From IMG/VR virus record IMGVR_UViG_3300010157_000061, positions 3,700 to 67,699 of that record: a stretch of DNA of 64,000 nt, one strand, 5' to 3'. The position numbers and the translations under genes were made by a program. Below are positions 31,413 to 46,878 of this stretch, one piece after another (position 1 is the first letter of the stretch; each line of letters opens with the position of its first letter). The DNA is from a virus. Taxonomy: Duplodnaviria; Caudoviricetes. The notes below the pieces were generated by a model. It was not told the origin of the DNA. It ran no database searches and was given only the letters and a program-made list of their open reading frames with translations.

Positions 31413-32582
31413 ATGGCAAAACAACAACTAATCAAGGAAGCATTTAAGTTACAACAAATAGCTGGAATTAGACCACTCTATGAATTCGAAAGTAGACTAG
31501 TAAGAGAAGATCTAGGATCATCAACTCATCAAGGTAAAAAAATCACCTGGGACGACTACGAAGTAGAAGAAAAAGGCATTGATGGTGGAGCTACTGATTC
31601 AGTAACACTAACCGGTATTGATGATGAAGGTAACAAGTATGATGCAATGGGAGAGATGGTTCACGGAGAATTAGACCCAGATACTATTACAGATATTCAG
31701 TTACTAGGCGGTATTCAAGAAGGTATGGATAGTGCAGATGAACTCGTAGATATACTATTAGGGCATGTAAAAGATCCAGATCAAGCTGAAAAATATGCTA
31801 GTATGGATCCAGAAATGTGGCCAGAATGGTTAGAAGCTAGTCTAAATAGAGATCCTAAGTATACTGAATTTGCAATGGAGAAGATCCAAGAAGCAGATGA
31901 CGATGACGATGCAGAAGATATGGAAGATGATTGGAATAAAGCAGACAGTGACGACGATTATGAACAAGAGCCAACTAAGAAAGATATCCAAGTAGGTGAT
32001 AAGATGGTAGGAGTGTTAGGTGGAAGCCAAAGCAGACTACAGACTCTAATGAACCAAAAAGATGCAATCTTAGCTAAATTCAAATCCGGTGAAATTTCTA
32101 TCGACCAATATAAACAAGAGATTGGTAATATACCTCAACAAATCAAGAATCTACAAGCTACTATTGAAAAACAGATGAGTGGTGGAGAGGAAGGAGAAGA
32201 TGAGATGTTAAATGAATCTGAAATTCACTATTTTTATAAAACAGACAGATACGGTTCTAGAGTATGTCATGCAAAAGACGATGAAGGTAATGTTTGGAAA
32301 GTAGATAATAGTAAGTGTAAGAGAGTAGGAACATATAATAACCAACGCGATGAAGTAAAGAAAGAGAGCGTTTTAGGAAAATATATTCGTCAAGAAGTGG
32401 TTAGAACTTTAAAAGAAAACGAAGGCGTTGAAGGAAAACAAAAACATGACTACCCTAAAGATAGATTTAAAGACGACGAAGAATACGAAAAATTCTTAGA
32501 CGATACTTTAAAAAAATTAATGGATAAAATTACTAATGACCCTAAACTATTAAATGTATTCAAGAGATTGAAAGACAAATAA
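31413..32582 (+). CDS. acidic modular protein with LQQIAGI tag (putative internal head protein)
   Basis: MAKQQLIKEAFKLQQIAGI; many [LIV]xE sites. Confidence 0.55.
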   Translation: MAKQQLIKEAFKLQQIAGIRPLYEFESRLVREDLGSSTHQGKKITWDDYEVEEKGIDGGATDSVTLTGIDDEGNKYDAMGEMVHGELDPDTITDIQLLGGIQEGMDSADELVDILLGHVKDPDQAEKYASMDPEMWPEWLEASLNRDPKYTEFAMEKIQEADDDDDAEDMEDDWNKADSDDDYEQEPTKKDIQVGDKMVGVLGGSQSRLQTLMNQKDAILAKFKSGEISIDQYKQEIGNIPQQIKNLQATIEKQMSGGEEGEDEMLNESEIHYFYKTDRYGSRVCHAKDDEGNVWKVDNSKCKRVGTYNNQRDEVKKESVLGKYIRQEVVRTLKENEGVEGKQKHDYPKDRFKDDEEYEKFLDDTLKKLMDKITNDPKLLNVFKRLKDK

Positions 32583-32590
32583 AAAAAGTA

Positions 32591-32938
32591 ATGCTAGACA
32601 CCTTAAAAAAACTAATACCGACTATAATAACCGTAGCCTTAACAGCTGCGGTTGTTTGGTTTATTATATCCAGTAATCAATCAAACATACCTATTGATCT
32701 AAAAGCTAAGATAGATTCATTATCTCAACTAGATAAACAGTTCATCATCCAACAACGTAAACTAGATAGTAGCATACATGTTGATGAAGAACATGTTCAG
32801 AATTTAGATACTAAGATAGGTAGTATAAAGGAAAAAATTACTATCGTTCGTGAATACTATCACGAAGTAAATCAAGCAACTAGTAAATATACACCAACTC
32901 AAATAGATTCATTCTTTAAAGTAAGATACACCTATTAA
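32591..32938 (+). CDS. putative inner-membrane spanin-like protein
   Basis: N-terminal TM helix (IPTIITVALTAAVVWFII) followed by coiled coil. Confidence 0.5.
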   Translation: MLDTLKKLIPTIITVALTAAVVWFIISSNQSNIPIDLKAKIDSLSQLDKQFIIQQRKLDSSIHVDEEHVQNLDTKIGSIKEKITIVREYYHEVNQATSKYTPTQIDSFFKVRYTY

Positions 32939-32939
32939 T

Positions 32940-33311
32940 ATGAAAAAACTACTATTAGTACTAACGCTGTTATGTTCACTAACTACATTACAAGCTCAAG
33001 ACACAATCAAAATACCTACTCCTATAGCTAAATCAATCATTCACGATTTGATAAGCGGAGATAGTGCTAAAGTAGAACTAAAACTAACCAAAGAAGTATT
33101 AGATTCTACCGAAAAGAAAGTCGTAATCAAGGATTCATTAATCGCTAAATGGCAGAATAAGTACATGGTTTGCGATAATAACCTTAGGAACGAGAAGACG
33201 AAATTTGAATTACAGAGTCAATACGTTACTCAATTAGAACGTGGTAAAACTAAACTAAAGGTAGTAGCAGGTTTTTTTATCTTTACAACAATCTTCGCTT
33301 TATTAAAATAA
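32940..33311 (+). CDS. putative spanin partner (signal peptide, coiled coil, C-terminal TM)
   Basis: MKKLLLVLTLLCSLTTLQA|QD signal peptide; VVAGFFIFTTIFALLK C-terminus. Confidence 0.5.
   Translation: MKKLLLVLTLLCSLTTLQAQDTIKIPTPIAKSIIHDLISGDSAKVELKLTKEVLDSTEKKVVIKDSLIAKWQNKYMVCDNNLRNEKTKFELQSQYVTQLERGKTKLKVVAGFFIFTTIFALLK
33181..33311 (+). repeat. 131-bp direct repeat copy 1 (3' end of spanin-like gene)
   Basis: matches 33952..34082 with 7 mismatches; begins with ACCTTAGGAAC. Confidence 0.95.
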
Positions 33312-33339
33312 CAGATATTTATTAATATAAACTTTAAAA

Positions 33340-33936
33340 ATGAAGAGACAAATTAACGAAGTAGTTAGAATGAGACGCCTGGCCGGTCTAATTACAGAAG
33401 CTGAAGAACAGCAAGAGCTAGAAGCAGCAGGGTCAAAACTACCTAAAATAGCTAAGATCGAAAAGAGTAGTAAGCCTGGAATCTTTCATAGAGACGGAAT
33501 ACTCTACAGCATCACCTTAGATAATGGTGACAAGGTCGAAGCAACCGATAGAACTCTATACAGTATCTTCGGAGATGATCCTTCAAACCCACAAGTATTT
33601 GTTGGTCAGGAATGGGATCAAGCCCCTTATAACGGAGATAAGCAAAACTTAAAAGAAGGTCCTGCTGTACAATTAGTAGTAAAAGCAGTACAAGCAGCAT
33701 TAGCTAAAGGAAGCACAGTTGAAGTAAACGGTGAAGAAGTAATTAGTGTAGTACCTTTAGCAGGTCGTTTTAAGACATCTAATGGTGGAATGATTAAAAT
33801 CGGAGATGTGGAAAATGTTGAGATTGATGGAGAACCCTTAGACTTAGAGATGCCAGACATAGATCAATCATCTCCTAACTTTAAATACACACCAACCGAT
33901 CCAGGTGACTCTATAACAGGTTATCATGGAGATTAA
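33340..33936 (+). CDS. hypothetical protein with RMRRLAGL tag
   Basis: MKRQINEVVRMRRLAGLITEA; internal NLKEG site. Confidence 0.6.
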   Translation: MKRQINEVVRMRRLAGLITEAEEQQELEAAGSKLPKIAKIEKSSKPGIFHRDGILYSITLDNGDKVEATDRTLYSIFGDDPSNPQVFVGQEWDQAPYNGDKQNLKEGPAVQLVVKAVQAALAKGSTVEVNGEEVISVVPLAGRFKTSNGGMIKIGDVENVEIDGEPLDLEMPDIDQSSPNFKYTPTDPGDSITGYHGD

Positions 33937-33951
33937 AAAATAAGTGATGTT

Positions 33952-34082
33952 ACCTTAGGAACGAGAAGACGAAATTTGAATTACAGAGCCAATACGTTAC
34001 TCAATTAGAACGTGGTAGAACTAAACTAAAGGTAGTAGTAGGTTTTTTTATCTTTACAACAATCTTTGCTTTACTAAAGTAG
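33952..34082 (+). repeat. 131-bp direct repeat copy 2 (start-less fragment of spanin-like gene)
   Basis: about 95% identical to 33181..33311; frame preserved, ends TAG. Confidence 0.95.
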
Positions 34083-34098
34083 GTTAATATTTATTATT

Positions 34099-34626
34099 AT
34101 GAACGAACTAAAAAGAATGCAGCAATTAGCTGGAATACTGAAAGAGAGTACTGGACTAGGAAGCAGTATGAGCTGGCTTAAAAGACTAACTCCGGAAATA
34201 GAAAAAAGCATAGACCGCTTAAAACAAAATTACCCTGACTATACAATTAAAATCACTGATAACAGTACTTGGAGAAGAGATAGACCGGACCTTAAAGGAA
34301 CTTATACATTATCTGTAGACGGACCTGTAATAACACCCGAGTTAAAGGTTGATATAGGTAGAATAGTTGATATGTCCAGGCTACAAGAAGGATTCCAAGG
34401 AGATAATGATGATCAAGATGATGGAATGAGTGGATTTAGAGGAGGAGCATTAGATAGATCAACTCCTAATGAACCTTCAATAGATAAGTCTAAACTAGGA
34501 TGGCAATCCTATCGTCTACTAGATAGATATATTACAAAGATGACTCAAGAACAGAGATTTAGACTGTATCAAACTATAGCTCAATTTCTTACTAAACAGG
34601 GTATAAAGAATCCAGATGAAGACTAA
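34099..34626 (+). CDS. hypothetical protein with RMQQLAGI tag
   Basis: MNELKRMQQLAGILKES; internal RLQEG site. Confidence 0.6.
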   Translation: MNELKRMQQLAGILKESTGLGSSMSWLKRLTPEIEKSIDRLKQNYPDYTIKITDNSTWRRDRPDLKGTYTLSVDGPVITPELKVDIGRIVDMSRLQEGFQGDNDDQDDGMSGFRGGALDRSTPNEPSIDKSKLGWQSYRLLDRYITKMTQEQRFRLYQTIAQFLTKQGIKNPDED

Positions 34627-34688
34627 TTGTTCCAATCTACCTTAGGAACATACCGTTGAACATTTCTAGACCAAATGTGCAATTTTTA

Positions 34689-34717
34689 AGCTCAACCCCG
34701 TAAGGTTGAGTTTTTTT
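34689..34717 (+). terminator. Rho-independent terminator
   Basis: CTCAACC-ccgtaa-GGTTGAG stem followed by T7. Confidence 0.8.
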
Positions 34718-34769
34718 ATATAAATATACGGTTTGATGTCCTTTTGATATATTTATATAAAATAGACTA

Positions 34770-35360
34770 ATGCCACAACAGGTAAGTAATGTAACTTATA
34801 TATATGTAGTAACAGGTATAGAAGGAAATTCCAATAAAGTGTACGTAGGTAAGACGAAAAATACTTCTCGAGAAAGGGATCATAAAAACAAGTACGGTAA
34901 TGGTATTGAATTTGCGTTTATAGACTATGTGGAGTCTTTAGAAAGAAAGTATTGGCAACCGTTAGAAACATACTGGATTGAGCAATTCAATGCATGGGGA
35001 TTTAACGTTGTTAATGTAAAGAAAAAAGGTGGGAGCGGTGTCGAATACCACACAGAAGATACTAAACAGAAGATACGAGCGAAAAATCTAGTAAGTAGTA
35101 GGAGAGGTATAGATCATCATAATTTTGGTAAACCTAACCCTGCTCTAAGTAGGTTGAATAAGTTAAAAGTAGGTAGAAACCACCCAATGTACGGTAAGAT
35201 TAATTTGGGAGCGAGCAAGAGTAGTAGTGCTAGAGTAGGTAGTAATAATCCGAACTATAGTAAAGTTTGGATAACTGATGGAATTGTAAGTAAAATGATA
35301 AATCAAGACTCAGAAGTCCCGTCAGGATTTCACTTAGGCAGAACGTACATAAGAAAATAA
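34770..35360 (+). mobile_element. free-standing GIY-YIG homing endonuclease (Seg-like, NUMOD-type tail)
   Basis: YIYVV...YVGKT, R..H, LE..WI motifs; HTEDTKQKI and NHPMYGK/NPNY repeats; directly upstream of terL. Confidence 0.8.
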
Positions 35361-35368
35361 AAACTATA

Positions 35369-36220
35369 ATGAATGAACAAGTAAATTATAAAGCAATAAT
35401 AAAACAAGAATTTGTCAAGTGTGCCACAGACCCAGTGTATTTTATGAAACGCTATTATTGGATACAGCACCCTCAACGTGGACGTATTCAATTTAACTTA
35501 TATCAATTCCAAGAACAGGTCCTACATCTATTACAGAATGATGAGTATATCATAATCAACAAATCAAGACAGTTAGGTATCTCAACCCTAGTATCTGCGT
35601 ATGCATTATGGTTGATGATATTCCAGAAGGATAAGAATATACTAGTTATTGCAACCAAGCAGGAGACGGCCAAGAACATGGTAACCAAGATAAGGTTTGC
35701 CTACGATCAATTACCGGCCTGGTTGAAAGTAAAATCAGTAGAAGATAATAGATTAAGTCTTAGACTAGCAAATGGTTCACAGGTAAAAGCAGTAGCAGCA
35801 TCACCGGATGCAGGTCGTTCGGAAGCAGTATCACTACTGATCTTAGATGAGGCTGCATTCATCGATAACATAGATACAATCTTTACCGCCGCTCAACAAA
35901 CCCTAGCCACTGGAGGACAATGCTTTGCAGTATCAACTCCCAACGGTACATCGAATTGGTTCCATAAAACCTATTCAAGGGCACAGATTAAGGAAAATAA
36001 ATTTACACCCCTTTCTTTACCTTGGACAGTACACCCGGAAAGAGATCAGACCTGGAGAAACGAACAAGATAAGACCTTAGGAGTTAGAGAAGCAGCTCAA
36101 GAGTGTGATTGTATATGGGGAGACAGCAGTGTAACAGTTCAATGCAAAGAGACAGGAGAGGTGAAAATCCTTTCGTTAGAACAGTTATATGCAGAAATGC
36201 AAGAATGTGATTATTTATAA
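35369..36220 (+). CDS. terL: terminase large subunit, N-terminal (ATPase) fragment fused to 36-aa split-intein N part
   Basis: KSRQLGIST Walker A, LLILDEAAF Walker B, STPNG; ends ...AAQECD|CIWGDSSV...LYAEMQECDYL. Confidence 0.92.
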   Translation: MNEQVNYKAIIKQEFVKCATDPVYFMKRYYWIQHPQRGRIQFNLYQFQEQVLHLLQNDEYIIINKSRQLGISTLVSAYALWLMIFQKDKNILVIATKQETAKNMVTKIRFAYDQLPAWLKVKSVEDNRLSLRLANGSQVKAVAASPDAGRSEAVSLLILDEAAFIDNIDTIFTAAQQTLATGGQCFAVSTPNGTSNWFHKTYSRAQIKENKFTPLSLPWTVHPERDQTWRNEQDKTLGVREAAQECDCIWGDSSVTVQCKETGEVKILSLEQLYAEMQECDYL

Positions 36221-36556
36221 GACTTAAGTATGATACAGTTTAAATCAAACAATAAATATAGAGTACAAACACCTAGCGGATTTAAAGATTTCTCAGGAAT
36301 GAGAAAGACTACAAAATCTAAGGTAGTAGAGATTACGTTATCTAACGGTAAATACTTGGAAGTATCAGAAGAACACAGGTTTTTAGGTATTGAAAACGTT
36401 GAAATACTAGCTAAAGATTTAATTGAAGGGATATGCCTAACAAAAAAGCTTAGTGTTACAAAGGTTAGTATTGTTGAAAAAGAAACATTTCTATATGATC
36501 TAACAGATGTAGGAGATGACAGCTACTATCTTACAGACGATATAGTATCACATAAT
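36110..36556 (+). mobile_element. atypically split intein (IntN 36110..36217, IntC 36230..36556)
   Basis: block A CIWGDS; IntC has SEEHRF (block B His), LYDL and terminal SHN followed by +1 Cys. Confidence 0.9.
36212..36219 (+). promoter_or_regulatory. putative late promoter for the IntC-TerL(C) gene
   Basis: TATTTATA overlapping the last codons and stop of the TerL(N)-IntN gene, 10 nt before ATG 36230. Confidence 0.6.
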
Positions 36557-37402
36557 TGTGACTTTATGACCTCAGGTGCTACCGTCTTAGAACCGGAATT
36601 ATTAAATTGGTACGATGCTACTTGTGCTCAGGATCCTATGCAGAGAACGGGTATAGACAGTAATATATGGTTGTGGGAGATGCCAGACTATAGTAGAACT
36701 TATGCAGTAGTAGCCGACGTAGCCAGAGGTGATGGTCGAGATTATTCATCGTTTCACATACTGGATATTGAATCAGCCAAGCAGGTCGGAGAATATAAAG
36801 GACAGCTAGATACCAGAGATTTCGGTAATATGTTAGTAGGTGTTGCCACTCAATACAATGATGCATTACTGGTAATAGAGAACACAGGTATTGGATGGGA
36901 TGTCGTACAGACGGCAGTACATAGAGAGTATAGAAACCTATACTACTCTCCTAAATCCGATGCAGCTATGACTGATATCGAAGTCTACATCTCTAAATTT
37001 GATAAAGGAGATGGTATGGTACCAGGCTTCTCAACCACGCAACGTTCAAGACCTTTAGTGATAGCTAAGATGAAATCATATATGCAAGAGAAATCTTGTA
37101 CCATACAATCTAAAAGACTCTTAGAAGAATTAAGAACCTTTGTATGGAAGCATGGCAAAGCACAAGCCCAGGAAGGTTATAATGATGACCTAGTAATGGC
37201 ATGGGCGATCGGTCTATTCCTGAGAGATACTACATTAAGATTCCAACAAGTAGGCCAAGACCTATCCAGAGCTACTCTTGGAGGTATGACAAAATCAAAC
37301 TACGGGTACCAAATCTACCAACCCACAACCTCAACCGGACAAAATCCTTGGGAGATGCCGAATCCTTACGGCCAGCAAGAAGATATTAGATGGGTCCTGT
37401 AA
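36230..37402 (+). CDS. terL: split-intein C part fused to terminase large subunit C-terminal (nuclease) fragment
   Basis: ...IVSHN|CDFMTSG; ADVARGDGRDYS, IENTGIG, NDDLVMA RNaseH-like nuclease motifs. Confidence 0.92.
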   Translation: MIQFKSNNKYRVQTPSGFKDFSGMRKTTKSKVVEITLSNGKYLEVSEEHRFLGIENVEILAKDLIEGICLTKKLSVTKVSIVEKETFLYDLTDVGDDSYYLTDDIVSHNCDFMTSGATVLEPELLNWYDATCAQDPMQRTGIDSNIWLWEMPDYSRTYAVVADVARGDGRDYSSFHILDIESAKQVGEYKGQLDTRDFGNMLVGVATQYNDALLVIENTGIGWDVVQTAVHREYRNLYYSPKSDAAMTDIEVYISKFDKGDGMVPGFSTTQRSRPLVIAKMKSYMQEKSCTIQSKRLLEELRTFVWKHGKAQAQEGYNDDLVMAWAIGLFLRDTTLRFQQVGQDLSRATLGGMTKSNYGYQIYQPTTSTGQNPWEMPNPYGQQEDIRWVL

Positions 37403-37429
37403 ACACTTAAATATTTATAAATACAACAT

Positions 37430-39364
37430 ATGGCAGAAAATAATTTATTTAGTAGTCTTAAGAGACTCTTTTCCACTGATGTAATCATTCGTAACATTGG
37501 CGGTAATGAGATCAAGGTAATGGATACAGACCGTATTCAAACCAACGGTGTATTACAGACAAATGCACTCATCGATAGGTTTAATAGGGTGTATACCACT
37601 TCAAACTCTTACGCCTACAACCTAAATACAACACAGAACTACCAAGCTATGCGTATTCAGCTCTATGCCGATTACGAAGCTATGGACACAGATGCTATCA
37701 TTGCATCAGCTCTAGATATCATCTCAGATGAATGTACTCTAAAGAATGAAGCCCAAGAGGTCTTACAGATTAGATCCTCAGATGAAAACGTTCAAAAGAT
37801 ACTATACAATCTATTCTACGATGTACTTAACATAGAATTCAATCTATGGTCGTGGATAAGAAATATGACTAAATTTGGTGATTTCTACCTAAAATTAGAG
37901 ATTGCAGAAAAGGTAGGTGTATATAACGTAATACCTTTCTCAGCCTACACCATAGTAAGAGAAGAGGGTACAGATTTAAGAAACCCTTCTTATGTAAGAT
38001 TCAAGTACGATCCCACCGCAGTATCATCTGGTGCTAGTGGATATGTGGGAGCTTACGCTAACCTATTAGGTCAAACAGACTCAATGTACTTTGAGAACTA
38101 TGAAATGGCACACTTTAGACTATTAGGAGACGTTAACTACTTACCGTATGGTAGATCCTACTTAGAACCAGGTAGAAAGATATTTAAACAAATGGTTTTA
38201 ATGGAGGATGCGATGATGATACATCGTATAGTACGTGCCCCGGATAAGAGAGCTTACTTTGTTAACGTAGGTGCGATACCTCCTAATGAGGTTGAGACTT
38301 ATATGCAGAGAATGATCTCTAAAATGAAGAAGATACCGTATATCGATCCACAAACCGGTCAATATAACCTAAAGTATAACATGCAGAACTTACTAGAAGA
38401 TTACTTTATTCCAGTAAGAGGTAATGATACTGCAACCCGTATCGAGACTGTACCTGGACTGCAGTATAACGGTATCGAAGACGTACAATATTTAAGAGAT
38501 AAGCTATTTGCTGCTCTAAAAATACCTAAAGCATTTATGGGTTATGAGAAAGATCTAACCGGTAAAGCTACTCTAGCAGCAGAAGATATTCGTTTTGCTA
38601 GAACCATCGAACGTATACAACGTATTGTACTATCCGAATTAACTAAGATAGCATTAGTACACCTATACACACAAGGGTATAGAGATGAGACGATGGTAAA
38701 CTTTGAATTAAACCTAACCACACCGTCAATCATCTACGACCAAGAAAGGATTGCATTGATGCAAGAAAAAGTAGATCTAGCAACACAGATGATGGAGAGT
38801 AATCTATTCCCAACTGATTGGATCTATGATAAGATCTTCCAATTAAGCGATGATCAATTAGATGATGTTAAAGCTCAGGTATTAGAAGATAAGAAACGTA
38901 AGTTTAGATACGATCAGATTGAAGCTGAGGGTAATGATCCTCTAGAATCAGGTCAAGCCTTTGGTACACCGCATCAAATCGCTAGCTTATACGGTGGTAA
39001 CGCCAATTATACAGCAGCAGCAGAGGTACCGGTAGGTTATAATGAAAAGAATCCTTTAGAACCAACAAAAGTACCGGGAAGACCTCAAGAAAAGAATTCA
39101 TTCATTGGTACCGCTAACGATCCTCTAGGTAGAGATAGAATGGGTACATACGATCTGAAAGCAAAACCTGCCGGAGGTGAAGATGGAGCTATGAGAGTTA
39201 AATACCAGGGTGGTTCAGCACTATCATTAGAGGGTATACATACTAAGGTAGTTTATAATAATTTGAAGTCAAGCCTTGATCAGATAGGTCTTAACCGAAA
39301 AGTTACTTTATTCGAAGAACCAACTCTTTTAGACGAAGCCAATATAATAGAGGAGATTCAATAA
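37430..39364 (+). CDS. gp20: portal protein (T4 gp20-like)
   Basis: YGRSYLE..RKIFKQ..LMEDAMMIHRIVRAP..F.V.VG.IP, EDYFIPVRG, LFAALKIPK, EDIRFARTIERIQ. Confidence 0.92.
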   Translation: MAENNLFSSLKRLFSTDVIIRNIGGNEIKVMDTDRIQTNGVLQTNALIDRFNRVYTTSNSYAYNLNTTQNYQAMRIQLYADYEAMDTDAIIASALDIISDECTLKNEAQEVLQIRSSDENVQKILYNLFYDVLNIEFNLWSWIRNMTKFGDFYLKLEIAEKVGVYNVIPFSAYTIVREEGTDLRNPSYVRFKYDPTAVSSGASGYVGAYANLLGQTDSMYFENYEMAHFRLLGDVNYLPYGRSYLEPGRKIFKQMVLMEDAMMIHRIVRAPDKRAYFVNVGAIPPNEVETYMQRMISKMKKIPYIDPQTGQYNLKYNMQNLLEDYFIPVRGNDTATRIETVPGLQYNGIEDVQYLRDKLFAALKIPKAFMGYEKDLTGKATLAAEDIRFARTIERIQRIVLSELTKIALVHLYTQGYRDETMVNFELNLTTPSIIYDQERIALMQEKVDLATQMMESNLFPTDWIYDKIFQLSDDQLDDVKAQVLEDKKRKFRYDQIEAEGNDPLESGQAFGTPHQIASLYGGNANYTAAAEVPVGYNEKNPLEPTKVPGRPQEKNSFIGTANDPLGRDRMGTYDLKAKPAGGEDGAMRVKYQGGSALSLEGIHTKVVYNNLKSSLDQIGLNRKVTLFEEPTLLDEANIIEEIQ

Positions 39365-39401
39365 CTATTAACTATTTATTAGTAGTATTATACTAAACTT
39401 T

Positions 39402-40262
39402 ATGAATAATATAAAGAAACATTCAAAATATAAGAACACCGGAATACTGTTTGAACTACTTGTTAGACAGGTAACAGCAGATATGGTGTCTAATCAAGAC
39501 TCAAGAGCGGTTAAGATTATAAAGAAATTCTTTACTAACAGTGAGCTATTGAAGGAATTCAATCTTTATAACGCTCTAACCAAAGCACCAAAACTAACTG
39601 AAACAAAAGCAGAGAGTTTGATTAATACTGTACTAGAAGAGAGTAAGAAATTAGATAAGGACGTATTAAATAGAGAAAAATACAACCTAATCAAAGAGAT
39701 TAAGAAGTACTTCGATGTAGAAAATTTCTTTAAAGCTAAGATAGACAACTATAAGACCTCAGCAGCTATCTATACGTTGTTTGAAGCGGGGAGATCAAAG
39801 GATCTCGTAAGCACTAAACATCTTATCATAAATAAAATTACCCTCTTAGAACACATCTCTCAAGCGTTTAGCACACCGGCAAAAGTTGAGAAGAAAGCAG
39901 TCCAAGAATTCTTAAAAGAGGATAAAGATATTAGAATATTAGCCTACAGATTAATTGTAGAGAAGTATAACGAAACTTACAAAGAATTATCTGACGATCA
40001 AAAAGATATCTTAAAAGAGTATATTGCTAATATCTCAGATACTACACAATTAAAAACCTATTTGAATAAGAAGATAGTGGAGGTTAGACAAAAACTAACT
40101 GCATTACTACCGACTATAAAAGATCAAGTAGTAACAATCAAGTTAAAAGAAGTAATCAATTTAGCTAAACCTATTACAGAGCGTCAATCCATCCAGGATG
40201 AGCATCTAGTATCATTACTTCAATACTTTGAATTATATAAAGAACTAAATCCAGTTAAATAA
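39402..40262 (+). CDS. conserved head-module protein
   Basis: KHSKYKNTGILFELLVRQ; lies between portal and protease. Confidence 0.6.
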   Translation: MNNIKKHSKYKNTGILFELLVRQVTADMVSNQDSRAVKIIKKFFTNSELLKEFNLYNALTKAPKLTETKAESLINTVLEESKKLDKDVLNREKYNLIKEIKKYFDVENFFKAKIDNYKTSAAIYTLFEAGRSKDLVSTKHLIINKITLLEHISQAFSTPAKVEKKAVQEFLKEDKDIRILAYRLIVEKYNETYKELSDDQKDILKEYIANISDTTQLKTYLNKKIVEVRQKLTALLPTIKDQVVTIKLKEVINLAKPITERQSIQDEHLVSLLQYFELYKELNPVK

Positions 40263-40265
40263 CAT

Positions 40266-40808
40266 ATGAGTGAGATAGATAAGATACTAGAGACTCTATA
40301 TAAAGAAACATCTGGAACAGGCGGAGGAGTGACGACTGGTGCTAATACTCAAGGCGGTACTGGAGAACAAACCTTTACACCTGTTAGGGTTAAGAAACCT
40401 AAGAAAGAGGAGAAGGATGTAGAACCTAAATTAGCAGCAGGTAAGGTCAAAGACAATTACGCTGTTTCTCATTTTGGGTACACTCCCGTATCTCATAAAC
40501 CTAACCGTGCTTCAAAGGCAATCGATTATAAGCAGTTATTTGAAGAAGAGCCTATAGTAGAGAACTATGGTAAGTTTAGAACGGAGACTTCTAAAAGGAA
40601 TGCACCCGAGCAGTTACACAAAGCAGTGAAGACAATCAAACAAAAGATCGTAGAACTGGATAGATTATTAGAATATACTCAGAGATTGAGATCAGAAATT
40701 ACAGAGAGTTCAGAAGACTTCAAATATATGAAACACACCGAGAGAGCTTTAGAACAGATCCAGGAAATGATTAAACACACATACATAAAAACGAAAAAAC
40801 TAAAATAA
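40266..40808 (+). CDS. hypothetical head-module protein
   Basis: 180 aa; LYKE/LFEE/IVEN sites. Confidence 0.55.
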   Translation: MSEIDKILETLYKETSGTGGGVTTGANTQGGTGEQTFTPVRVKKPKKEEKDVEPKLAAGKVKDNYAVSHFGYTPVSHKPNRASKAIDYKQLFEEEPIVENYGKFRTETSKRNAPEQLHKAVKTIKQKIVELDRLLEYTQRLRSEITESSEDFKYMKHTERALEQIQEMIKHTYIKTKKLK

Positions 40809-40809
40809 T

Positions 40810-41115
40810 ATGTCAGACAATTTTGACCTAAGGAAGTTTATATCTGAAAACAGAGTAGGCCCTTACATTAGAACCGAAGGTAACGATCTACCACCAGCAC
40901 CATCTGATGAAGAAACAGCCGCCAACCAAGTAACTGAGACTTCTTTAGAAGCTATGGAGAGAATGGATGGATTAGCACCGATCGATTCTGTTAAACGATT
41001 AATCGCAGCAGCAGGAAAGATTATACGTGACCTAAAAGAAGAAGGCTTTGATGAAGAAGATATCTACGAATATATTATCGAGAGAATTAAATTGTTAGAC
41101 GATCAAAATTACTAA
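40810..41115 (+). CDS. acidic hypothetical protein (FDLRKFISE N-terminus)
   Basis: 101 aa ORF in head cluster. Confidence 0.55.
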   Translation: MSDNFDLRKFISENRVGPYIRTEGNDLPPAPSDEETAANQVTETSLEAMERMDGLAPIDSVKRLIAAAGKIIRDLKEEGFDEEDIYEYIIERIKLLDDQNY

Positions 41116-41122
41116 GTAAGAC

Positions 41123-41248
41123 ATGGCAAAAGCATCTACCACCGGGGCAAATAAGGTTTCTTTCGGTAAACGTAAACAAGGTTCTGCTAAAAAATCTTAT
41201 AACAAACACAACCCAAGACCTAAAGCCTATAAAGGGCAAGGGAAATAA
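41123..41248 (+). CDS. small basic protein (41 aa), absent from ORF track
   Basis: MAKASTTGANKVSFGKRKQGSAKKSYNKHNPRPKAYKGQGK*; fills the intergenic gap. Confidence 0.65.
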   Translation: MAKASTTGANKVSFGKRKQGSAKKSYNKHNPRPKAYKGQGK

Positions 41249-41264
41249 CCCTATATTTATTAAT

Positions 41265-43100
41265 ATGAAATCAATAGTACAACAATACCGTGATCTAAAC
41301 GAAGGTAAGATGTCGAAAGCTAACTTTATGACTAACGTTAGACGTCAATTCCCCGATTGGATCTCATCTGTAAATAGTTACCAAGATGCTATAAGCATTT
41401 TAAAGAGTAAGAGAATCCTGAGTGAGGAGTTAGGATCTGGAAGTGAGATGACTGTTAGTTCGGCGATAGAACATATCTTTGACGGTGATTTTGATGGTAA
41501 CCCACTAAAACTAATAAAAGCTAAAGAGTTGGTTAGTACATCAAATCATCCTGATAAAGCAGTTACTCTACATATGATAGAGAAGAAACTAGAAGATGCT
41601 TTAGATGCTGAGATGAAAGGTCAAATGGACCATGATAAAGCACAGTGGGATATGGAGATGAATGAAGATGAAAGTGGAAAGCAAAAAGAATTTGCTGCAC
41701 TAGCACCACCTAGAAATAAGATTACTTATGCCGATAAGATTGCAGGTGCGAAATTGAAGAAAGAAGAAGAAGTATCGATGGAGGGTAAGAAACCATTCTA
41801 CCTAGTATCTGATAGCGGAGAGATTGTAGATAGTACAATGGCTGAAGATGAAACTGAAGCTAGACAGTACTTTGAAAATGAATACGAAGGTATCGGTAGT
41901 AGCATGACAATTATACATACTAATAACCCAGACGAAATTGGAGATGTATATGCTGAAGATAGTTTAAATGAAATTAGAAAAAAGAAACCCTCTACAGGTC
42001 TATCTCAAAAGAAAAAATCAGCTATAGTTAAAAAAGCTAAAGCAGGTGGAGATATAGGTAAGAAAGGTAAAGGCTTTGAAAAAATAGAGAAGACAGCAGA
42101 AAAGAAATATGGTTCAAAAGAGGCTGGAGAAAAAGTTGCTGCAGCTGCGATGTGGAAATCACAAGCTAAAAAAGCTACAGTAAAAGAAGCTAAGGAAGAG
42201 AGTGAAGGCTACTACAAACACGTAACAGGAAAGGACGAATACTCTGTTTTCGATGAAATCGATAGAGTTAATCCTTACGAATTTAAAAGAGGTGTTAATA
42301 TAGAGATGGGAATGCAATACAAACCAATTCCTAAATACTTCACACCTGAATTCAATCCTGAAACACTTGCTAAGGCTACCAAAAAGGTATTAAAGAATCT
42401 TGAAAAAGATCCTGCATACTATACAAATATGATTTCAGCTGAGTTTGAAAAGAAATCAGGCTTACTTCAACATCCAAAAGAACTAAAAGTAGGTCCGGAC
42501 GGAAGAGCTAAAATACCTGGATTTACAGATGCTAAATCTAATACAGAGACTAATCAAAGTAAAAAAGAGAGAGCTAAAGGTGGACCAGAGGGCGTAAAAG
42601 AGATGAAGCCATCAAAGAAATCGATGGGTGGAATAAAAACTATGAAGTCTAATGATAAACTACCTAAAGGTGTTGAATTGATGAAAGAATCTTTAAACGA
42701 AGGTGGTGATTATACATTTAACGGGCACTTTAAAACAGGTGAATTAGCTAAACTAAAACAGCAAATACCGGATGCTGAGATTGATACAGATACAGAAGAA
42801 GGGCAATCAGTTAAAACAACTGTAATGTCTAAGAAGTATAACGAAAAGACGATCCAACAAGCTGTTAATAATGTCTTAGGTATGGGTAAATCAAATGAAT
42901 TCCCTATCAAAGGTCAGATGATGGAAGATAAAAAAGCTAAACAGTTAAAAAAGATCAAAGAGACTGTAGCTAAGAAGATTAAAGAAGATTTATATAAGAA
43001 CACCAAATCAGGTAATGTACAGTCTTTCAATCCAGCAGATCCAGCAGATCAAAAGACAATAAGAGACCCTAAGTTTAACCAAGTATTTAAAAAAGCATAA
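41265..43100 (+). CDS. large modular head-associated protein (putative internal/core protein)
   Basis: 611 aa with alternating acidic and basic blocks separated by [LMIV]xE sites; coupled to the protease gene. Confidence 0.55.
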   Translation: MKSIVQQYRDLNEGKMSKANFMTNVRRQFPDWISSVNSYQDAISILKSKRILSEELGSGSEMTVSSAIEHIFDGDFDGNPLKLIKAKELVSTSNHPDKAVTLHMIEKKLEDALDAEMKGQMDHDKAQWDMEMNEDESGKQKEFAALAPPRNKITYADKIAGAKLKKEEEVSMEGKKPFYLVSDSGEIVDSTMAEDETEARQYFENEYEGIGSSMTIIHTNNPDEIGDVYAEDSLNEIRKKKPSTGLSQKKKSAIVKKAKAGGDIGKKGKGFEKIEKTAEKKYGSKEAGEKVAAAAMWKSQAKKATVKEAKEESEGYYKHVTGKDEYSVFDEIDRVNPYEFKRGVNIEMGMQYKPIPKYFTPEFNPETLAKATKKVLKNLEKDPAYYTNMISAEFEKKSGLLQHPKELKVGPDGRAKIPGFTDAKSNTETNQSKKERAKGGPEGVKEMKPSKKSMGGIKTMKSNDKLPKGVELMKESLNEGGDYTFNGHFKTGELAKLKQQIPDAEIDTDTEEGQSVKTTVMSKKYNEKTIQQAVNNVLGMGKSNEFPIKGQMMEDKKAKQLKKIKETVAKKIKEDLYKNTKSGNVQSFNPADPADQKTIRDPKFNQVFKKA

Positions 43101-43723
43101 TGAGTAAACAAGTCTTAATAGAATACCTAACTTTTCAACCTCAACCCACTCAATTAAATGAAGCAAGGTTTAATCCAAGCAAGAATTTAATTGTATCTGG
43201 AAAGATACAGTCTGAGGGTAAACCTAATGCCAATAAGAGAGTCTATGGACCTTCTTTGAGAAGAGAGGTAGCTAGCTATATATCAGGACCGGTAGCCGAG
43301 AAGAGAGCTTTAGGAGAGTTAGATCACCCTGAAACAGGTATCATCAATCTTAAGAACGTATGTCATAATATGACTAGGTTATGGTGGGAGGGTGATGACT
43401 TATATGGAGAATTTGAAATCCTAGCAACACCATCGGGTAATATCTTAAAAGAATTATTTATGAACAACATCAATGTTGGTGTAAGTTCTAGAGCGATGGG
43501 ATCCGTTACTCCACTAGGAGAAGGCCTGGTACAGGTAGAGGATGACTTAGAATTAATATGTTGGGATTTTGTATCAACACCTTCAACCTATGGAGCATTT
43601 GTTAAACCGGTAGGAGGATTAAACGAAGGATATAACCCGGTATTTGAATCACCGTATAGAAAAGCCAATCAGATAATAGGAGAGTTGATCTGTACTCAAA
43701 CAGGTATCTGCTGTCTAAAATAA
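43100..43723 (+). CDS. gp21: prohead core protease (T4 gp21-like)
   Basis: NANKRVY, ALGELDHP, TPSGNIL, GVSSRAMGS, WDFVSTPSTYGA. Confidence 0.92.
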   Translation: MSKQVLIEYLTFQPQPTQLNEARFNPSKNLIVSGKIQSEGKPNANKRVYGPSLRREVASYISGPVAEKRALGELDHPETGIINLKNVCHNMTRLWWEGDDLYGEFEILATPSGNILKELFMNNINVGVSSRAMGSVTPLGEGLVQVEDDLELICWDFVSTPSTYGAFVKPVGGLNEGYNPVFESPYRKANQIIGELICTQTGICCLK

Positions 43724-43747
43724 AGCAAAACCACAATACAATAAAGG

Positions 43748-43778
43748 AAAGAGTTCGTAAAAAATACGAACTTTTTTT
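43748..43778 (+). terminator. Rho-independent terminator
   Basis: AGTTCGTA-aaaaa-TACGAACT followed by T-run. Confidence 0.75.
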
Positions 43779-43910
43779 GTGTTTACAGTAAAAGTGACAT
43801 ATTTATGATTATATATGCCGTCCCAATACGGTATCAAACGAATTTACAATTCATTATATTGCTTCCCCAACCCCAATAAGCAATCAGAAGTCCAAAAACA
43901 ATTAACAAAA

Positions 43911-45152
43911 ATGGCAAACAAAGATTTATTCGAGCAAGCGATTGCTGACGCCAAGGCATTGAAAGAAATTTCTTTAGCTAACGCAAAACAACAAATCGAA
44001 GAAACATTTGCTCCAAAGATTCAAGAGATGTTCCGCCTTAAACTTTCAGAGATGGAAGATGAAGGGTACGATGACATGCAAGAAGACATGGAGAGAGAAG
44101 AATCTGAGATGGAAGAAGGAATGTCAGGACCTGCTAACGATCCTGATGACGGAGTTCCGAATCAAAATTACAATAAAGGTAAACAAGGTGCACTAGTGAA
44201 TCCAATCGACGAAATGACTTTAGACGAAATCCTAGCTGAGCTAGAATTAGAAGAAGGTATGGAGGATGATTATGAGGATGCAGTAGATAACCTAGACGAC
44301 GGTGATGCTTTAGAAGAAGGTCATTCTTATTCTGACACAGAACCTTTCGGAGACTTACCAGGCACAGAAAAAGGCTGGGTAGGAGGTAAGAAAGATGTTA
44401 AGGGTACAGAGAAAGGAACACCTTACAAAGAAGCTAAGAAAGCTGATGCAGAAGATGCTGAAGAGGTAGATGATGCAGAAGAAGATGCTGAAGAAGCAGA
44501 AGGTGAAGTAGCTGAATTATCGGTTGAAGAGTTTAAAAACCTAGTTCGTGATATCGTAGCAGACGTAATGGGCGGTAAAACACAACCTGAAGAAGGTGGT
44601 GAAGAAGACCTAGAAGGTGGCGAAGATATGACAGTAACAGCTGATGAAGAAGGCGATGAAACTATTTCTTTAGATGAAATCTTAGCAGAGATCGGCCTTA
44701 TGGAAGGCAAAAAGAAAATGGTTGCGAAGAAAGATGACAAGAAAAAAGAAGACAAGAAGAAAGAAGACGAAAAGAAAGAGAAAGAAGATTTAAAAGAGGC
44801 TATTAGAACGATACACGTTTTAAAAGCTCAATTAAACGAACTTAATCTTTTAAACGCTAAATTACTTTACGTTAACAAGTTATATAAAGCAAAAAACCTA
44901 AATGAAGGTCAAAAAGTAAAAGTTTTAGCTGCTTTTGATAGAGCAACAACTATCAACGAAGCAAAAAACATTTACGCAACATTAAAAGATTCTTTACAAG
45001 TTAATGCTCCTGTAGCAAAAGGACAACTTAAAGAGTCTCTAGGCTTTGCATCAAAACCAATTGGTTCAGCTCCAGCTAGACCAATCGTAGAGGCTGATTC
45101 ATATGTTTACCGTATGCAGCAATTAGCTGGTATCAAAAAACCAAATATTTAA
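43911..45152 (+). CDS. prohead scaffold/core protein (gp22-like)
   Basis: very acidic, coiled-coil, between protease and capsid genes; likely start ATG 43911 after an A-rich leader; LNELNLLNAKLLY; C-terminus RMQQLAGIKKPNI. Confidence 0.8.
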   Translation: MANKDLFEQAIADAKALKEISLANAKQQIEETFAPKIQEMFRLKLSEMEDEGYDDMQEDMEREESEMEEGMSGPANDPDDGVPNQNYNKGKQGALVNPIDEMTLDEILAELELEEGMEDDYEDAVDNLDDGDALEEGHSYSDTEPFGDLPGTEKGWVGGKKDVKGTEKGTPYKEAKKADAEDAEEVDDAEEDAEEAEGEVAELSVEEFKNLVRDIVADVMGGKTQPEEGGEEDLEGGEDMTVTADEEGDETISLDEILAEIGLMEGKKKMVAKKDDKKKEDKKKEDEKKEKEDLKEAIRTIHVLKAQLNELNLLNAKLLYVNKLYKAKNLNEGQKVKVLAAFDRATTINEAKNIYATLKDSLQVNAPVAKGQLKESLGFASKPIGSAPARPIVEADSYVYRMQQLAGIKKPNI

Positions 45153-45177: not shown

Positions 45178-46878
45178 ATGGCAAACACAATTCAATCACT
45201 GTTAGAGTCGGCGAACCCGTACCAATCAGTGCAATCAGATGCCGAAAGACTAAGCAGAAAGTGGGCTAAATCAGGCTTACTTGAAGGTCTAGACGGATAT
45301 CATAGAAAGAACATGTCTATGATGCTTGAAAACCAAGCAAAACAATTAGTAGTTGAATCTTCACTTACAGGTGGCGGTACAACTTCAGGTGCTAACTTTA
45401 CTACAGGTACTGGTGAGCAATGGGCTGGAGTAGCTTTACCGTTAGTTCGTAAGATCTTCGGTCAAATCTCTTCAAAAGAGTTCGTTTCAGTTCAACCAAT
45501 GAACTTACCTGCTGGTCTAGTATTCTACTTAGATTTCCAATATGGAACTAACGGTGTACAACCTTTCCAAACTGGTTCAGCTTCTGGATCTTTATTCGGT
45601 CAGCAATCAATCCAAGGTGATTCTACATTTGGTAACGCTGCTGCACAAGGTTTATACGGTGCTGGTAGATTCGGATACTCAATCAATCAATTCTCTGCTT
45701 CAACTAACATCTCAGGTAGTGGTACTGCAGGTAACTACGTAGCTTCTGCTTCATTCTCTGAAGTTAACTACAGTGCTGCTTATTCTGCATCATTTGCAGC
45801 AGGTGAGATTAAGAAATTAGTTGTTACTAATGCTAGTACTTTACTTTCAAGCTTTGACGCTAATAACGTACGTGCTTTCGTTGTAACTTCAGGTTCAACT
45901 GTAACTACAGCTACTAACATCCAAGAGTTAACAACTACTAACGGTACAACAATTAACTTCTTTGTTACCGCTTCATCAGCAAATATTGCTACTTCAGGTT
46001 CTTACACAATTTACTTTGAAAAAGCAACTGGATTTGCTACACGTGGTGATTTTGAAGATCAACCAGCTTCAGAAAACTTCTCTGTACCAAATGCTCAATC
46101 AGCAACTACAATCTCTATACCAGAGGTTAACGTTCAAATGAGATCAGAAGCTATTGCAGCTAAGACTCGTAAGTTGAAAGCACAATGGACTCCAGAATTT
46201 GCACAAGACTTGAATGCTTACCATTCATTAGATGCGGAAGCTGAATTAACTTCTATGTTATCAGAGTATATCTCTTTAGAGATTGACTTAGAGATCTTAG
46301 ATATGTTAATTGAGAACGTTCCAACTTCTAATACAACTGCTTGGTCAGCTCAGGTTGGTAACCAATTAAACGCTACAGGTACTGCTTTCACAAGTAATAC
46401 AGCAGGTGTTTACTACACACAAATGACTTGGTTCCAAACTTTAGGTATCAAATTACAAAAGATATCTAACTTAATCCACCAAAGAACTTTAAGAGGTGGT
46501 GCTAACTTTATGGTTGTTTCTCCAACTGTAGCTACAATCTTAGAATCTATTCCAGGATTTGCAGCTGATACAGACGGTGCAGCAGATACAATGAAGTATG
46601 CATTCGGTGTACAAAAAGTAGGTCAATTAAATAGCCGTTACAAAGTATATAAGAACCCTTATATGATTGAGAACACTATCTTAATGGGCTTCAGAGGTAA
46701 TCAATTCTTAGAGTGTGGTGCGGTTTATGCCCCTTACATTCCATTAATCATGACTCCATTAGTGTACGATCCGAACACATTTACCCCAAGAAAAGGGATT
46801 ATGACAAGATATGCTAAGAAAATGATCAGACCAGAATACTACGGTAAGGTTTGGGTAGCAGATCTTCAAGTAGTTTAA
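45178..46878 (+). CDS. gp23: major capsid protein (T4 gp23-like)
   Basis: VSVQPMNLPAGLVF, AKTRKLKAQWTPEFAQDLNAYHSLDAEAEL, YAPYIPL, P.KGIMTRYA. Confidence 0.95.
   Translation: MANTIQSLLESANPYQSVQSDAERLSRKWAKSGLLEGLDGYHRKNMSMMLENQAKQLVVESSLTGGGTTSGANFTTGTGEQWAGVALPLVRKIFGQISSKEFVSVQPMNLPAGLVFYLDFQYGTNGVQPFQTGSASGSLFGQQSIQGDSTFGNAAAQGLYGAGRFGYSINQFSASTNISGSGTAGNYVASASFSEVNYSAAYSASFAAGEIKKLVVTNASTLLSSFDANNVRAFVVTSGSTVTTATNIQELTTTNGTTINFFVTASSANIATSGSYTIYFEKATGFATRGDFEDQPASENFSVPNAQSATTISIPEVNVQMRSEAIAAKTRKLKAQWTPEFAQDLNAYHSLDAEAELTSMLSEYISLEIDLEILDMLIENVPTSNTTAWSAQVGNQLNATGTAFTSNTAGVYYTQMTWFQTLGIKLQKISNLIHQRTLRGGANFMVVSPTVATILESIPGFAADTDGAADTMKYAFGVQKVGQLNSRYKVYKNPYMIENTILMGFRGNQFLECGAVYAPYIPLIMTPLVYDPNTFTPRKGIMTRYAKKMIRPEYYGKVWVADLQVV

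Follow-up and report, generated by a model that had tools for sequence, protein, structure and literature searches.

We analysed a 64-kb window of viral DNA (bases 3700-67699 of a 67.7-kb IMG/VR record, with an estimated completeness of 41% according to CheckV). Its plus strand carries a T4-type head module with portal, four core genes, protease, scaffold and major capsid protein. Judged by its gp20 portal, gp21-type protease and gp23 capsid protein, the window belongs to a T4-like phage. The subject of this study is a short peptide, R-h-Q-x-[LI]-A-G-[IL] (h, hydrophobic), which lies at the C-terminal end of the scaffold and also opens three further proteins of the window, here called cargo proteins, where it is followed by [LI]xE. 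We refer to this peptide as the tail on the scaffold and as the tag or LAGI tag on other proteins.

The scaffold tail and three cargo leaders in the window

All sequences that the original prediction had assigned to the scaffold end and to three cargo N-termini were found at their positions. The scaffold C-terminus reads PIVEADSYVYRMQQLAGIKKPNI up to the stop codon, and the cargo open reading frames (ORFs) at 34099, 33340 and 31413 begin with the leaders listed in Table 1. The [LI]xE sites described after each tag were likewise present, as LKE (34099), ITE (33340) and LYE (31413). A six-frame search of the window with the strict pattern [RK][ML][QRK][QRK][LIV]AG[ILV] revealed exactly four matches, the scaffold tail and the three leaders. 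The 17-mer ATGCAGCAATTAGCTGG, which had been noticed as identical DNA at 34117 and 45114, was found at these two positions only, even when up to two mismatches were allowed (shuffle expectation 0.01).

Outside the tag the three cargo proteins are unrelated, as had been supposed: the best BLASTP match of a tag-containing pair was the tag itself, and the comparison of 31413 with 33340 gave an E-value of 4.8. Scans with Pfam and PHROGs showed no match for cargo 33340 and 34099 and a weak PHROG of unknown function for cargo 31413. Comparison of the cargo bodies with the ESM Atlas revealed no match at or above 0.9, with template modelling (TM) values below 0.5, and ten further tagged proteins gave nothing above the Pfam cut-off. 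The extra 3.7 kb of the virus record contained no N-terminal tag.

The acidic ORF 43815-45152 (445 aa) was matched by no Pfam or PHROG family. Comparison with the scaffolds of Microcystis phage Mel-JY01 and of the uncultured phage LR756508 indicates that the scaffold probably starts with the Met at 43911 (MANKDLFEQAIADAK) rather than at 43815.

The sequence TATTTAT[AT] occurs 28 times on the plus strand and 4 times on the minus strand of the window. It lies 10-37 nt upstream of all three cargo genes and also precedes the portal gene and the genes at 39402 and 41265. A TATTTATT motif ends 10 nt before the start of 34099 and is found upstream of 33340 as well. The TATTTAT[AT] sequence that cargo and head genes have in common upstream would fit their co-expression. 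Upstream of 34099, a near-identical stretch of about 70 nt repeats the 3' end of the spanin-like gene 32940-33311 (33250-33340 and 34010-34099), and this duplication suggests that the cargo genes were inserted by recombination.

Table 1. Head genes, scaffold tail and cargo leaders in the window
Feature	Position	Strand	Basis or remark
Portal protein, gp20 family	37430..39364	+	Pfam Portal_T4, 1.5e-65
Head-core protein, 611 aa, between portal and protease	41265..43100	+	untagged in the window
Prohead protease, T4 gp21 family	43100..43723	+	Pfam Peptidase_S77, 4.9e-20; PHROG 207 head maturation protease, 1.7e-42
Scaffolding protein, gp22 position between protease and capsid gene	43911..45152 (ORF open from 43815)	+	position
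Major capsid protein, gp23 family	45178..46878	+	Pfam Gp23, 9.2e-73; solved T4 gp23 chains matched at 1e-31
I-V-E protease-type site directly before the scaffold tail	45084..45092	+	translation; putative cleavage site
Scaffold C-terminal peptide ADSYVYRMQQLAGIKKPNI (tail after IVE)	45093..45149	+	motif RMQQLAGI at 45111-45134
Leader MNELKRMQQLAGILKE of cargo ORF 34099-34626 (175 aa)	34099..34146	+	motif at 34114-34137; ends L-K-E
Leader MKRQINEVVRMRRLAGLITE of cargo ORF 33340-33936 (198 aa)	33340..33399	+	motif at 33367-33390; flanked by I-N-E and I-T-E
Leader MAKQQLIKEAFKLQQIAGIRPLYE of cargo ORF 31413-32582 (389 aa)	31413..31484	+	motif at 31446-31469; flanked by I-K-E and L-Y-E

Tail and tag in related phages

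By capsid protein identity, the nearest named relatives are Flavobacterium phage vB_FspM_immuto (57.6%), Mel-JY01 (50.6%), LR756508 (484 kb; 47.2%) and Rhodothermus phage RM378 (35.2%). Relatives of the portal are encoded on at least 599 IMG/VR stretches. With the portal as query, 80 related loci around the portal gene were collected, which together with the window comprise 81 sources and 872,645 bases.

The scaffold tail was present in all sources that could be judged. An ORF upstream of the capsid gene ended with R-[WML]-[QK]-x-[LI]-A-G-[IL], at most 6 residues from the stop, in 26 of the 26 sources holding a capsid gene, and an I-x-E-x-D directly before the tail was invariant in all 16 aligned scaffolds. 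A profile of the last 115 residues of the scaffold, searched against 1.84 billion proteins clustered at 50% identity, detected 3738 representative clusters at E<=0.001. Among the 150 best of these representatives 145 carried the tail, 122 as ..LAG.., 22 as ..LAN.. and 1 as ..FAG... The remaining five consisted of three scaffolds ending in RWQQLVFGNK and two tailless ones, of which one looks truncated and one runs past the match. The RWQQLVFGNK scaffolds (P0219, P0235, P0251) stand apart from those ending in ..LAGIK as a subgroup.

Tails of the same kind end the scaffolds of the named relatives: RWQKLAGIIK in immuto gp067, ERMKKLAGIVK in Mel-JY01, SRMQKLADIS in LR756508 and ERIKRLAGL in RM378 p142. 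The immuto scaffold gp067 (NC_055915.1, 125626-126867) is annotated in its record as 'DNA polymerase phi-like protein', a label that is probably a low-complexity artefact. Classical T4-likes differ in their gp22 tails, which read VYAKVASRF in T6 and YVDALARWSK in P-RSM4. In a crude test on T6 and P-RSM4, the gp22 tail heptapeptide occurred once per genome, with one further 2-mismatch match in T6, and generality of the arrangement among classical T4-likes was rejected.

To locate tags and tails together, all 81 sources were searched in six frames with the relaxed motif x[MLIFW][QKREH]x[LIVM]AG[ILVM]. This yielded 89 matches, of which 60 lie near the N-terminus of coding-strand ORFs, 28 lie at most 8 residues from a stop, and a single one is on the minus strand, inside a 23-aa ORF. 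Not one of the 89 matches is internal to a protein; the place of the motif is strictly terminal in this set. Shuffling the residues within the 956 coding-strand ORFs of at least 80 aa gave 3.3 matches on average and 9 at most. A chance origin was rejected, since 88 matches were observed.

Glu sites flank the motif with great regularity. Of the 60 N-terminal tags, 58 have a Met 9-23 residues ahead of the LAG core and 57 have an [LIVM]xE a few residues downstream. Among database proteins, an (L/I)-x-E-type site lies beside the motif in 122 of 123 instances. The tag consensus, M-K-(K/Q)-x-(L/I)-N-E-(I/V)-(K/R)-(R/K/Q)-(M/L)-Q-x-(L/I)-A-G-(L/I)-(L/I)-x-E, holds a Glu site on both sides, so that most tags are bracketed by two such sites. 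Up to 6 tagged genes were counted per 18-kb locus (L025, L037).

The 49 distinct tag DNAs use all four synonymous codons for the invariant Ala and for the invariant Gly, which places selection on the level of the peptide; an explanation of the motif at the DNA level was rejected for the same reason. We built a 40-residue profile from 48 distinct tagged N-termini, which belong to proteins of 69-618 aa. Among 8000 candidates scored from a database of 5.8 billion sequences, at least 413 proteins matched at E<=10, with E-values down to 1e-22. These matches all bear either no name or the label 'hypothetical', and they lack Pfam domains. The best 120 matches, 74-603 aa in length, comprised 117 proteins with the motif in the first 30 residues only and 3 with two copies. 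The peptide common to scaffold tail and cargo N-termini is conserved as a protein sequence in hundreds of relatives.

Tail and tags are unevenly distributed over the named relatives. Scans of the whole genomes of RM378 (130 kb) and Mel-JY01 (190 kb) revealed the tail and no N-terminal tag, and N-terminal tags numbered one in immuto (gp083, MKKQILSEQFRRMQKLAGIITE), two on a 41-kb piece of LR756508 and three in the window. Since the distant relatives RM378 and Mel-JY01 carry the tail without tags, the tags look like derived copies of a pre-existing scaffold feature.

Placement, exchange and predicted shape of the tag

The peptide is portable. In the three two-copy proteins (P0001, P0012, P0056) the second tag stands between two domains, again beside Glu sites, and is sometimes still preceded by MKKQ. 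They appear to be either fusions of adjacent cargo genes or small polyproteins. The tag was also found at the C-terminus of proteins that show no resemblance to the scaffold. A 263-aa protein encoded between protease and scaffold (L035, 16562-17353) ends in IARLKKLAGIQ after TIKE, a 766-aa protein that adjoins the terminase (L122) ends in STLRMQKLANIIKG after LNE, and 319-aa proteins encoded upstream of the terminase (L135 and L144) end in ERFQKLANIIK. Two more C-tagged non-scaffold proteins are encoded in L110 and L131, for which the fetched pieces do not hold the head module. A body with a DGHHRW motif is C-tagged in the L035 protein and N-tagged in P0056, which are weakly similar (pairwise E 6e-6 over 41 aa). 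The DGHHRW motif may be ParB-like; the bodies carrying it had no Pfam match.

Homologous bodies also exchange their leaders. Among the 19 matches listed for the body of cargo 31413 (aa 150-270), 16 carried the leader M[EV]FNxxKFLxENKLT, 2 the LAGI tag and 1 a hybrid. Among the homologues listed for domain 332-480 of the 41265 core protein, at least 8 start with the tag MKKPINEIERLKLIAGLINE and at least 8 with another N-terminal domain; in other phages, pieces of this protein sit behind MIKL leaders. Within the window, N-termini of the type MIKLxx[IL][LF]xE open six ORFs (21060, 27404, 27865, 28188, 28754 and 29914), and the conserved N-terminus of the capsid protein, M..xxQSLLE followed by SANPY, looks similar to them. 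A third leader class is represented by MSDNFDLRKFISEN on ORF 40810 (40810-40850) and by the M[EV]FNxxKFLxENKLT leader on homologues of the 31413 body (loci L015-L073). Compared with the LAGI tag, the NFxxKFLxE leader of ORF 40810 is presumably more similar to the leader of T4 IPIII. The swapping of leaders between homologous bodies, together with the MIKL leaders in the same window, shows at least three interchangeable leader classes, all of which end in a Glu site.

The shape of the scaffold end was predicted with AlphaFold2 (AF2) from its last 115 aa and a 16-sequence alignment. The model consists of a three-helix domain with a predicted local distance difference test score (pLDDT) of 83-94, a linker of about 30 residues (66-94; pLDDT 50-59) containing the conserved GFASKP, and a terminal helix V95-L107, which begins at the IVE site and stops at the Leu that precedes A-G (pLDDT about 76 and 65 for the final two blocks). 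This helix is followed by eight non-helical residues, AGIKKPNI. In the model of the 34099 cargo leader, a helix E3-L10 stops before A-G and non-helical AGILKE comes next. Tail and tag are thus predicted to have the same shape, a helix up to the Leu before A-G and a non-helical end, where the predictions describe propensities of isolated peptides. A search of solved structures revealed no homologue of the scaffold C-terminal domain.

Proposed prohead addressing, rival explanations and known systems

The best reading of the tag is a portable, protease-removed prohead-addressing peptide, an analogue of the T4 capsid targeting sequence (CTS) that copies the scaffold tail. With a probability of roughly 0.6, the motif [VI]-x-R-[MWLF]-Q-x-[LI]-A-[GN]-[IL]-[IL]-K acts as a transferable address label for the prohead interior, which docks cargo at the site of the scaffold tail and is released by the protease. 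The tags, a trait of a sizeable group of T4-like phages from aquatic habitats, most likely smuggle small proteins into the growing head.

The original place of the peptide would be the extreme C-terminus of the scaffold, as a short amphipathic helix up to L-A-G and an extended I-I-K end. There it would most likely dock the scaffold to a partner in the prohead, for which our first candidate is the inner surface of the gp23-type capsid protein. Other proteins would have acquired the peptide, mostly at the N-terminus but also at the C-terminus or between domains, and would be built into the prohead through the same docking site. The gp21-type protease would then cut at the bracketing [LIV]-x-E sites. 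On N-tagged cargo the cut would lie downstream of the tag, and on the scaffold and C-tagged cargo it would precede the peptide; cargo bodies and small tag peptides would in this way be set free inside the head. What we observe is the motif, its terminal place, the Glu sites beside it, its conservation as a peptide, its portability and the S77 protease, whereas prohead incorporation, cleavage and a common receptor are what we infer.

In T4, internal proteins are directed to the core by CTS propeptides, which gp21 cleaves off (PMC9026906, section 2.6; PMC3012670), and an Asp at CTS position 10 stops processing, not targeting, as described in PMC9026906. The likeness to the CTS of IPI-III and Alt is close, as both are N-terminal leaders of 10-20 residues that form the only conserved part of unrelated, fast-evolving proteins (for T4 as outlined in PMC3012670 and PMC9026906), and both end at a gp21-type (L/I)-x-E in a phage that has gp20, gp21 and gp23 homologues. 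Three sequence-level hallmarks of the T4 CTS were accordingly found in the window phage: a common leader on unrelated proteins, its (L/I)-x-E end, and an S77 protease together with a scaffold in the gp22 position. Unlike the T4 CTS, the LAGI leader copies the scaffold's own C-terminal peptide and occurs at C-terminal and inter-domain places too; it is known here from sequence. The leader of the T4 internal proteins presumably does not resemble the LAGI tag.

A scaffold tail that is common to a second protein has a counterpart in 80alpha and SaPI1. According to PMC5644958, the 80alpha scaffold binds the capsid protein through a helix-and-hook made up of its last 16 residues, the SaPI1 protein CpmB uses the same motif, and the end residues RIIK of both insert between domains of the capsid protein. 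The predicted shape of tail and leader resembles this helix-and-hook, and in both cases a terminal amphipathic helix with a short hydrophobic and basic end (here L-A-G-I-I-K before the stop) is common to the scaffold and a second protein. CpmB differs in being a satellite's rival scaffold with the motif at the C-terminus only, whereas the LAGI peptide sits on the phage's own cargo, mostly at the N-terminus, on dozens of unrelated bodies and beside a protease site. The two peptides have no sequence homology, and binding of the LAGI peptide to the capsid protein is suggested by analogy.

Entry by way of the scaffold end is known from herpesviruses and from lambda/P2-type nested protease-scaffold genes, where a non-scaffold protein enters the procapsid via the scaffold's capsid-binding C-terminus; in herpesviruses the scaffold tail is clipped by the maturation protease. 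These systems rely on in-frame overlapping genes and bring in the protease only, whereas here independent genes carry short copies. The cargo-loading peptides of encapsulins are short terminal peptides on diverse cargo that bind the inside of an HK97-fold shell. Unlike the phage, encapsulins lack a scaffold and a protease and do not package DNA; their peptide is not removed, and there is no sequence relation to the LAGI tag.

The original prediction had considered a design of this kind undescribed in phages. The literature searched contained no account of cargo proteins that reuse a scaffold tail as a tag at the N-terminus, at the C-terminus and between domains, and the motif strings were absent. 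The claim of novelty was overstated and has to be narrowed to the multi-position cargo tag, as a protease-removed N-terminal CTS is textbook knowledge for T4 (PMC9026906) and sharing of a tail is known for SaPI1 CpmB (PMC5644958).

As receptor of the docking peptide, the capsid protein is by analogy the first candidate and the core the second. The wider form of the proposal is one universal docking code for a pocket on the inner gp23-type shell, at which the scaffold and N-, C- and inter-domain-tagged cargo compete; we consider this conceivable, at slightly less than even odds. Numbers given for T4 in PMC5694885 (960 gp23, 576 gp22 and about 1000 internal proteins) may leave room for cargo on shell sites that are unused by the scaffold. 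A complex prediction for the capsid protein and the last 50 scaffold residues (16-row alignments, without controls) gave an interaction prediction score from aligned errors (ipSAE) of 0.01 in two runs and counts neither way. Docking of tag and tail to the scaffolding core, that is to the scaffold body or to the products of 39402, 40266 or 41265, is the rival view. Cargo would then be co-polymerised with the core, as is assumed for the T4 CTS, whose propeptides are said to have affinity for the core (PMC9026906, PMC5694885), and homologues of the 41265 core protein are themselves tagged. We judge this unlikely, as the scaffold C-terminus binds the capsid protein where a contact has been seen (80alpha, with P22 cited, in PMC5644958), and as the predicted helix and extended end, separated from the folded domain by a disordered linker of about 30 residues, have the layout of a tether that reaches the shell. 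The absence of co-variation between tail and tag favours neither receptor.

Co-variation had been named as a test of the original prediction, and two comparisons revealed no significant signal. Over 10 positions in 16 distinct loci, the mean identity of tail and tag was 5.24 within the same genome and 5.16 after permutation (p 0.32; p 0.24 for the best tag per genome). For the G/N state of L-A-[GN] in 59 distinct N-terminal tags, genomes with a LAN tail kept LAG in 20 of 23 tags, compared to 35 of 36 in genomes with a LAG tail (Fisher p 0.29). Co-variation was therefore not used as support, and these values weigh against prohead addressing by a copied tail, as do several further observations. 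Trp occupies the hydrophobic position in 10 of 15 distinct tails and in 0 of 42 distinct tags of the first locus set; it dominates the tails of one subclade and is rare in tags, RW tags occurring in two loci of the second set. The upstream Glu lies 6 residues from the motif on the scaffold and 2 on cargo. Other leader types in the same genome mean that the LAGI tag is not required for every cargo. In publications on immuto and Mel-JY01, supplements not covered, no virion or prohead proteome and no proof of cutting was found. The mismatch of tail and tag is compatible with a tolerant pocket and equally allows different receptors for tail and tags.

The original interpretation is partly supported. 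An addressing signal copied from the scaffold tail is expected to look like this peptide, with its conservation, its strictly terminal or inter-domain place, its separation from the bodies by Glu sites and the exchange of leaders on homologous bodies. The description as a 'second addressing signal' fits as well, because MIKL-type and NFxxKFLxE-type leaders coexist with the tag.

The constant company of [LIV]xE sites could also mean that the peptide is a protease-docking or inhibitory propeptide, which recruits the gp21-type protease or keeps its bearer inactive until cleavage, while entry into the head depends on other features. Some tagged bodies may indeed be enzymes, such as those with the DGHHRW motif (L035, 16562-17353, and P0056). 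We regard this as improbable, since numerous other [LIV]xE sites in scaffold and capsid proteins are not accompanied by the motif, T4 gp21 is described in PMC9026906 as needing very few determinants, and the tail is kept in phages without tagged cargo; moreover, quite different leaders on homologous bodies fit interchangeable addresses better than specific inhibitors. Less probable still, and indeed hardly to be expected, is that the peptide is a by-product of module shuffling, in which 5' gene ends were seeded from the scaffold 3' end, or that it has a role outside the virion, for example in binding a chaperone or host protein. The 17-nt identity of tag and tail DNA in the window, the duplicated spanin 3' end upstream of 34099 and the existence of two-tag fusion proteins would suit shuffling. 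It is opposed by the free codon use for the invariant Ala and Gly among the 49 tag DNAs, by the strictly terminal position without internal matches, by conservation from RM378, at 35% capsid identity, to the window phage, and by the location of tagged genes in or beside the head module with the same upstream motif as head genes.

If prohead addressing by a copied scaffold tail is correct, it bears on a long-standing question, as since the 1990s the binding partner of the T4 CTS has been described no further than by 'affinity for the core', and here a targeting leader is the scaffold-tail peptide. This identity turns the search for the CTS receptor into a simple competition and structure experiment with two defined peptides. 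If the shell-pocket code is true, it would be a natural cargo-loading-peptide system like that of encapsulins in a large clade of aquatic T4-like phages, programmable by adding 12-20 residues to any protein, self-releasing via the head protease, and the first identification of what a T4-type CTS binds. One short, movable and self-removing tag could suffice to mark many unrelated proteins that are to be delivered into the host. This bears on the evolution of ejected anti-defence proteins, and the tag could be used as it stands for packaging when phages that infect Bacteroidota and other aquatic hosts are engineered. The tagged proteins are all unannotated, and the tag marks them as candidate virion-delivered effectors.

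Two minor observations concern other genes of the window. Core protein 40266 continues directly after an L-Y-K-E site with TSGTGGGVTTGANTQGGTGEQ (40266-40400), a near-copy of SSLTGGGTTSGANFTTGTGEQ (45340-45420) in the capsid protein, where it follows the presumed VVE maturation site. The large terminase is encoded as two adjacent ORFs, 35369-36220 and 36230-37402, and relatives match both halves at adjoining, slightly overlapping positions.

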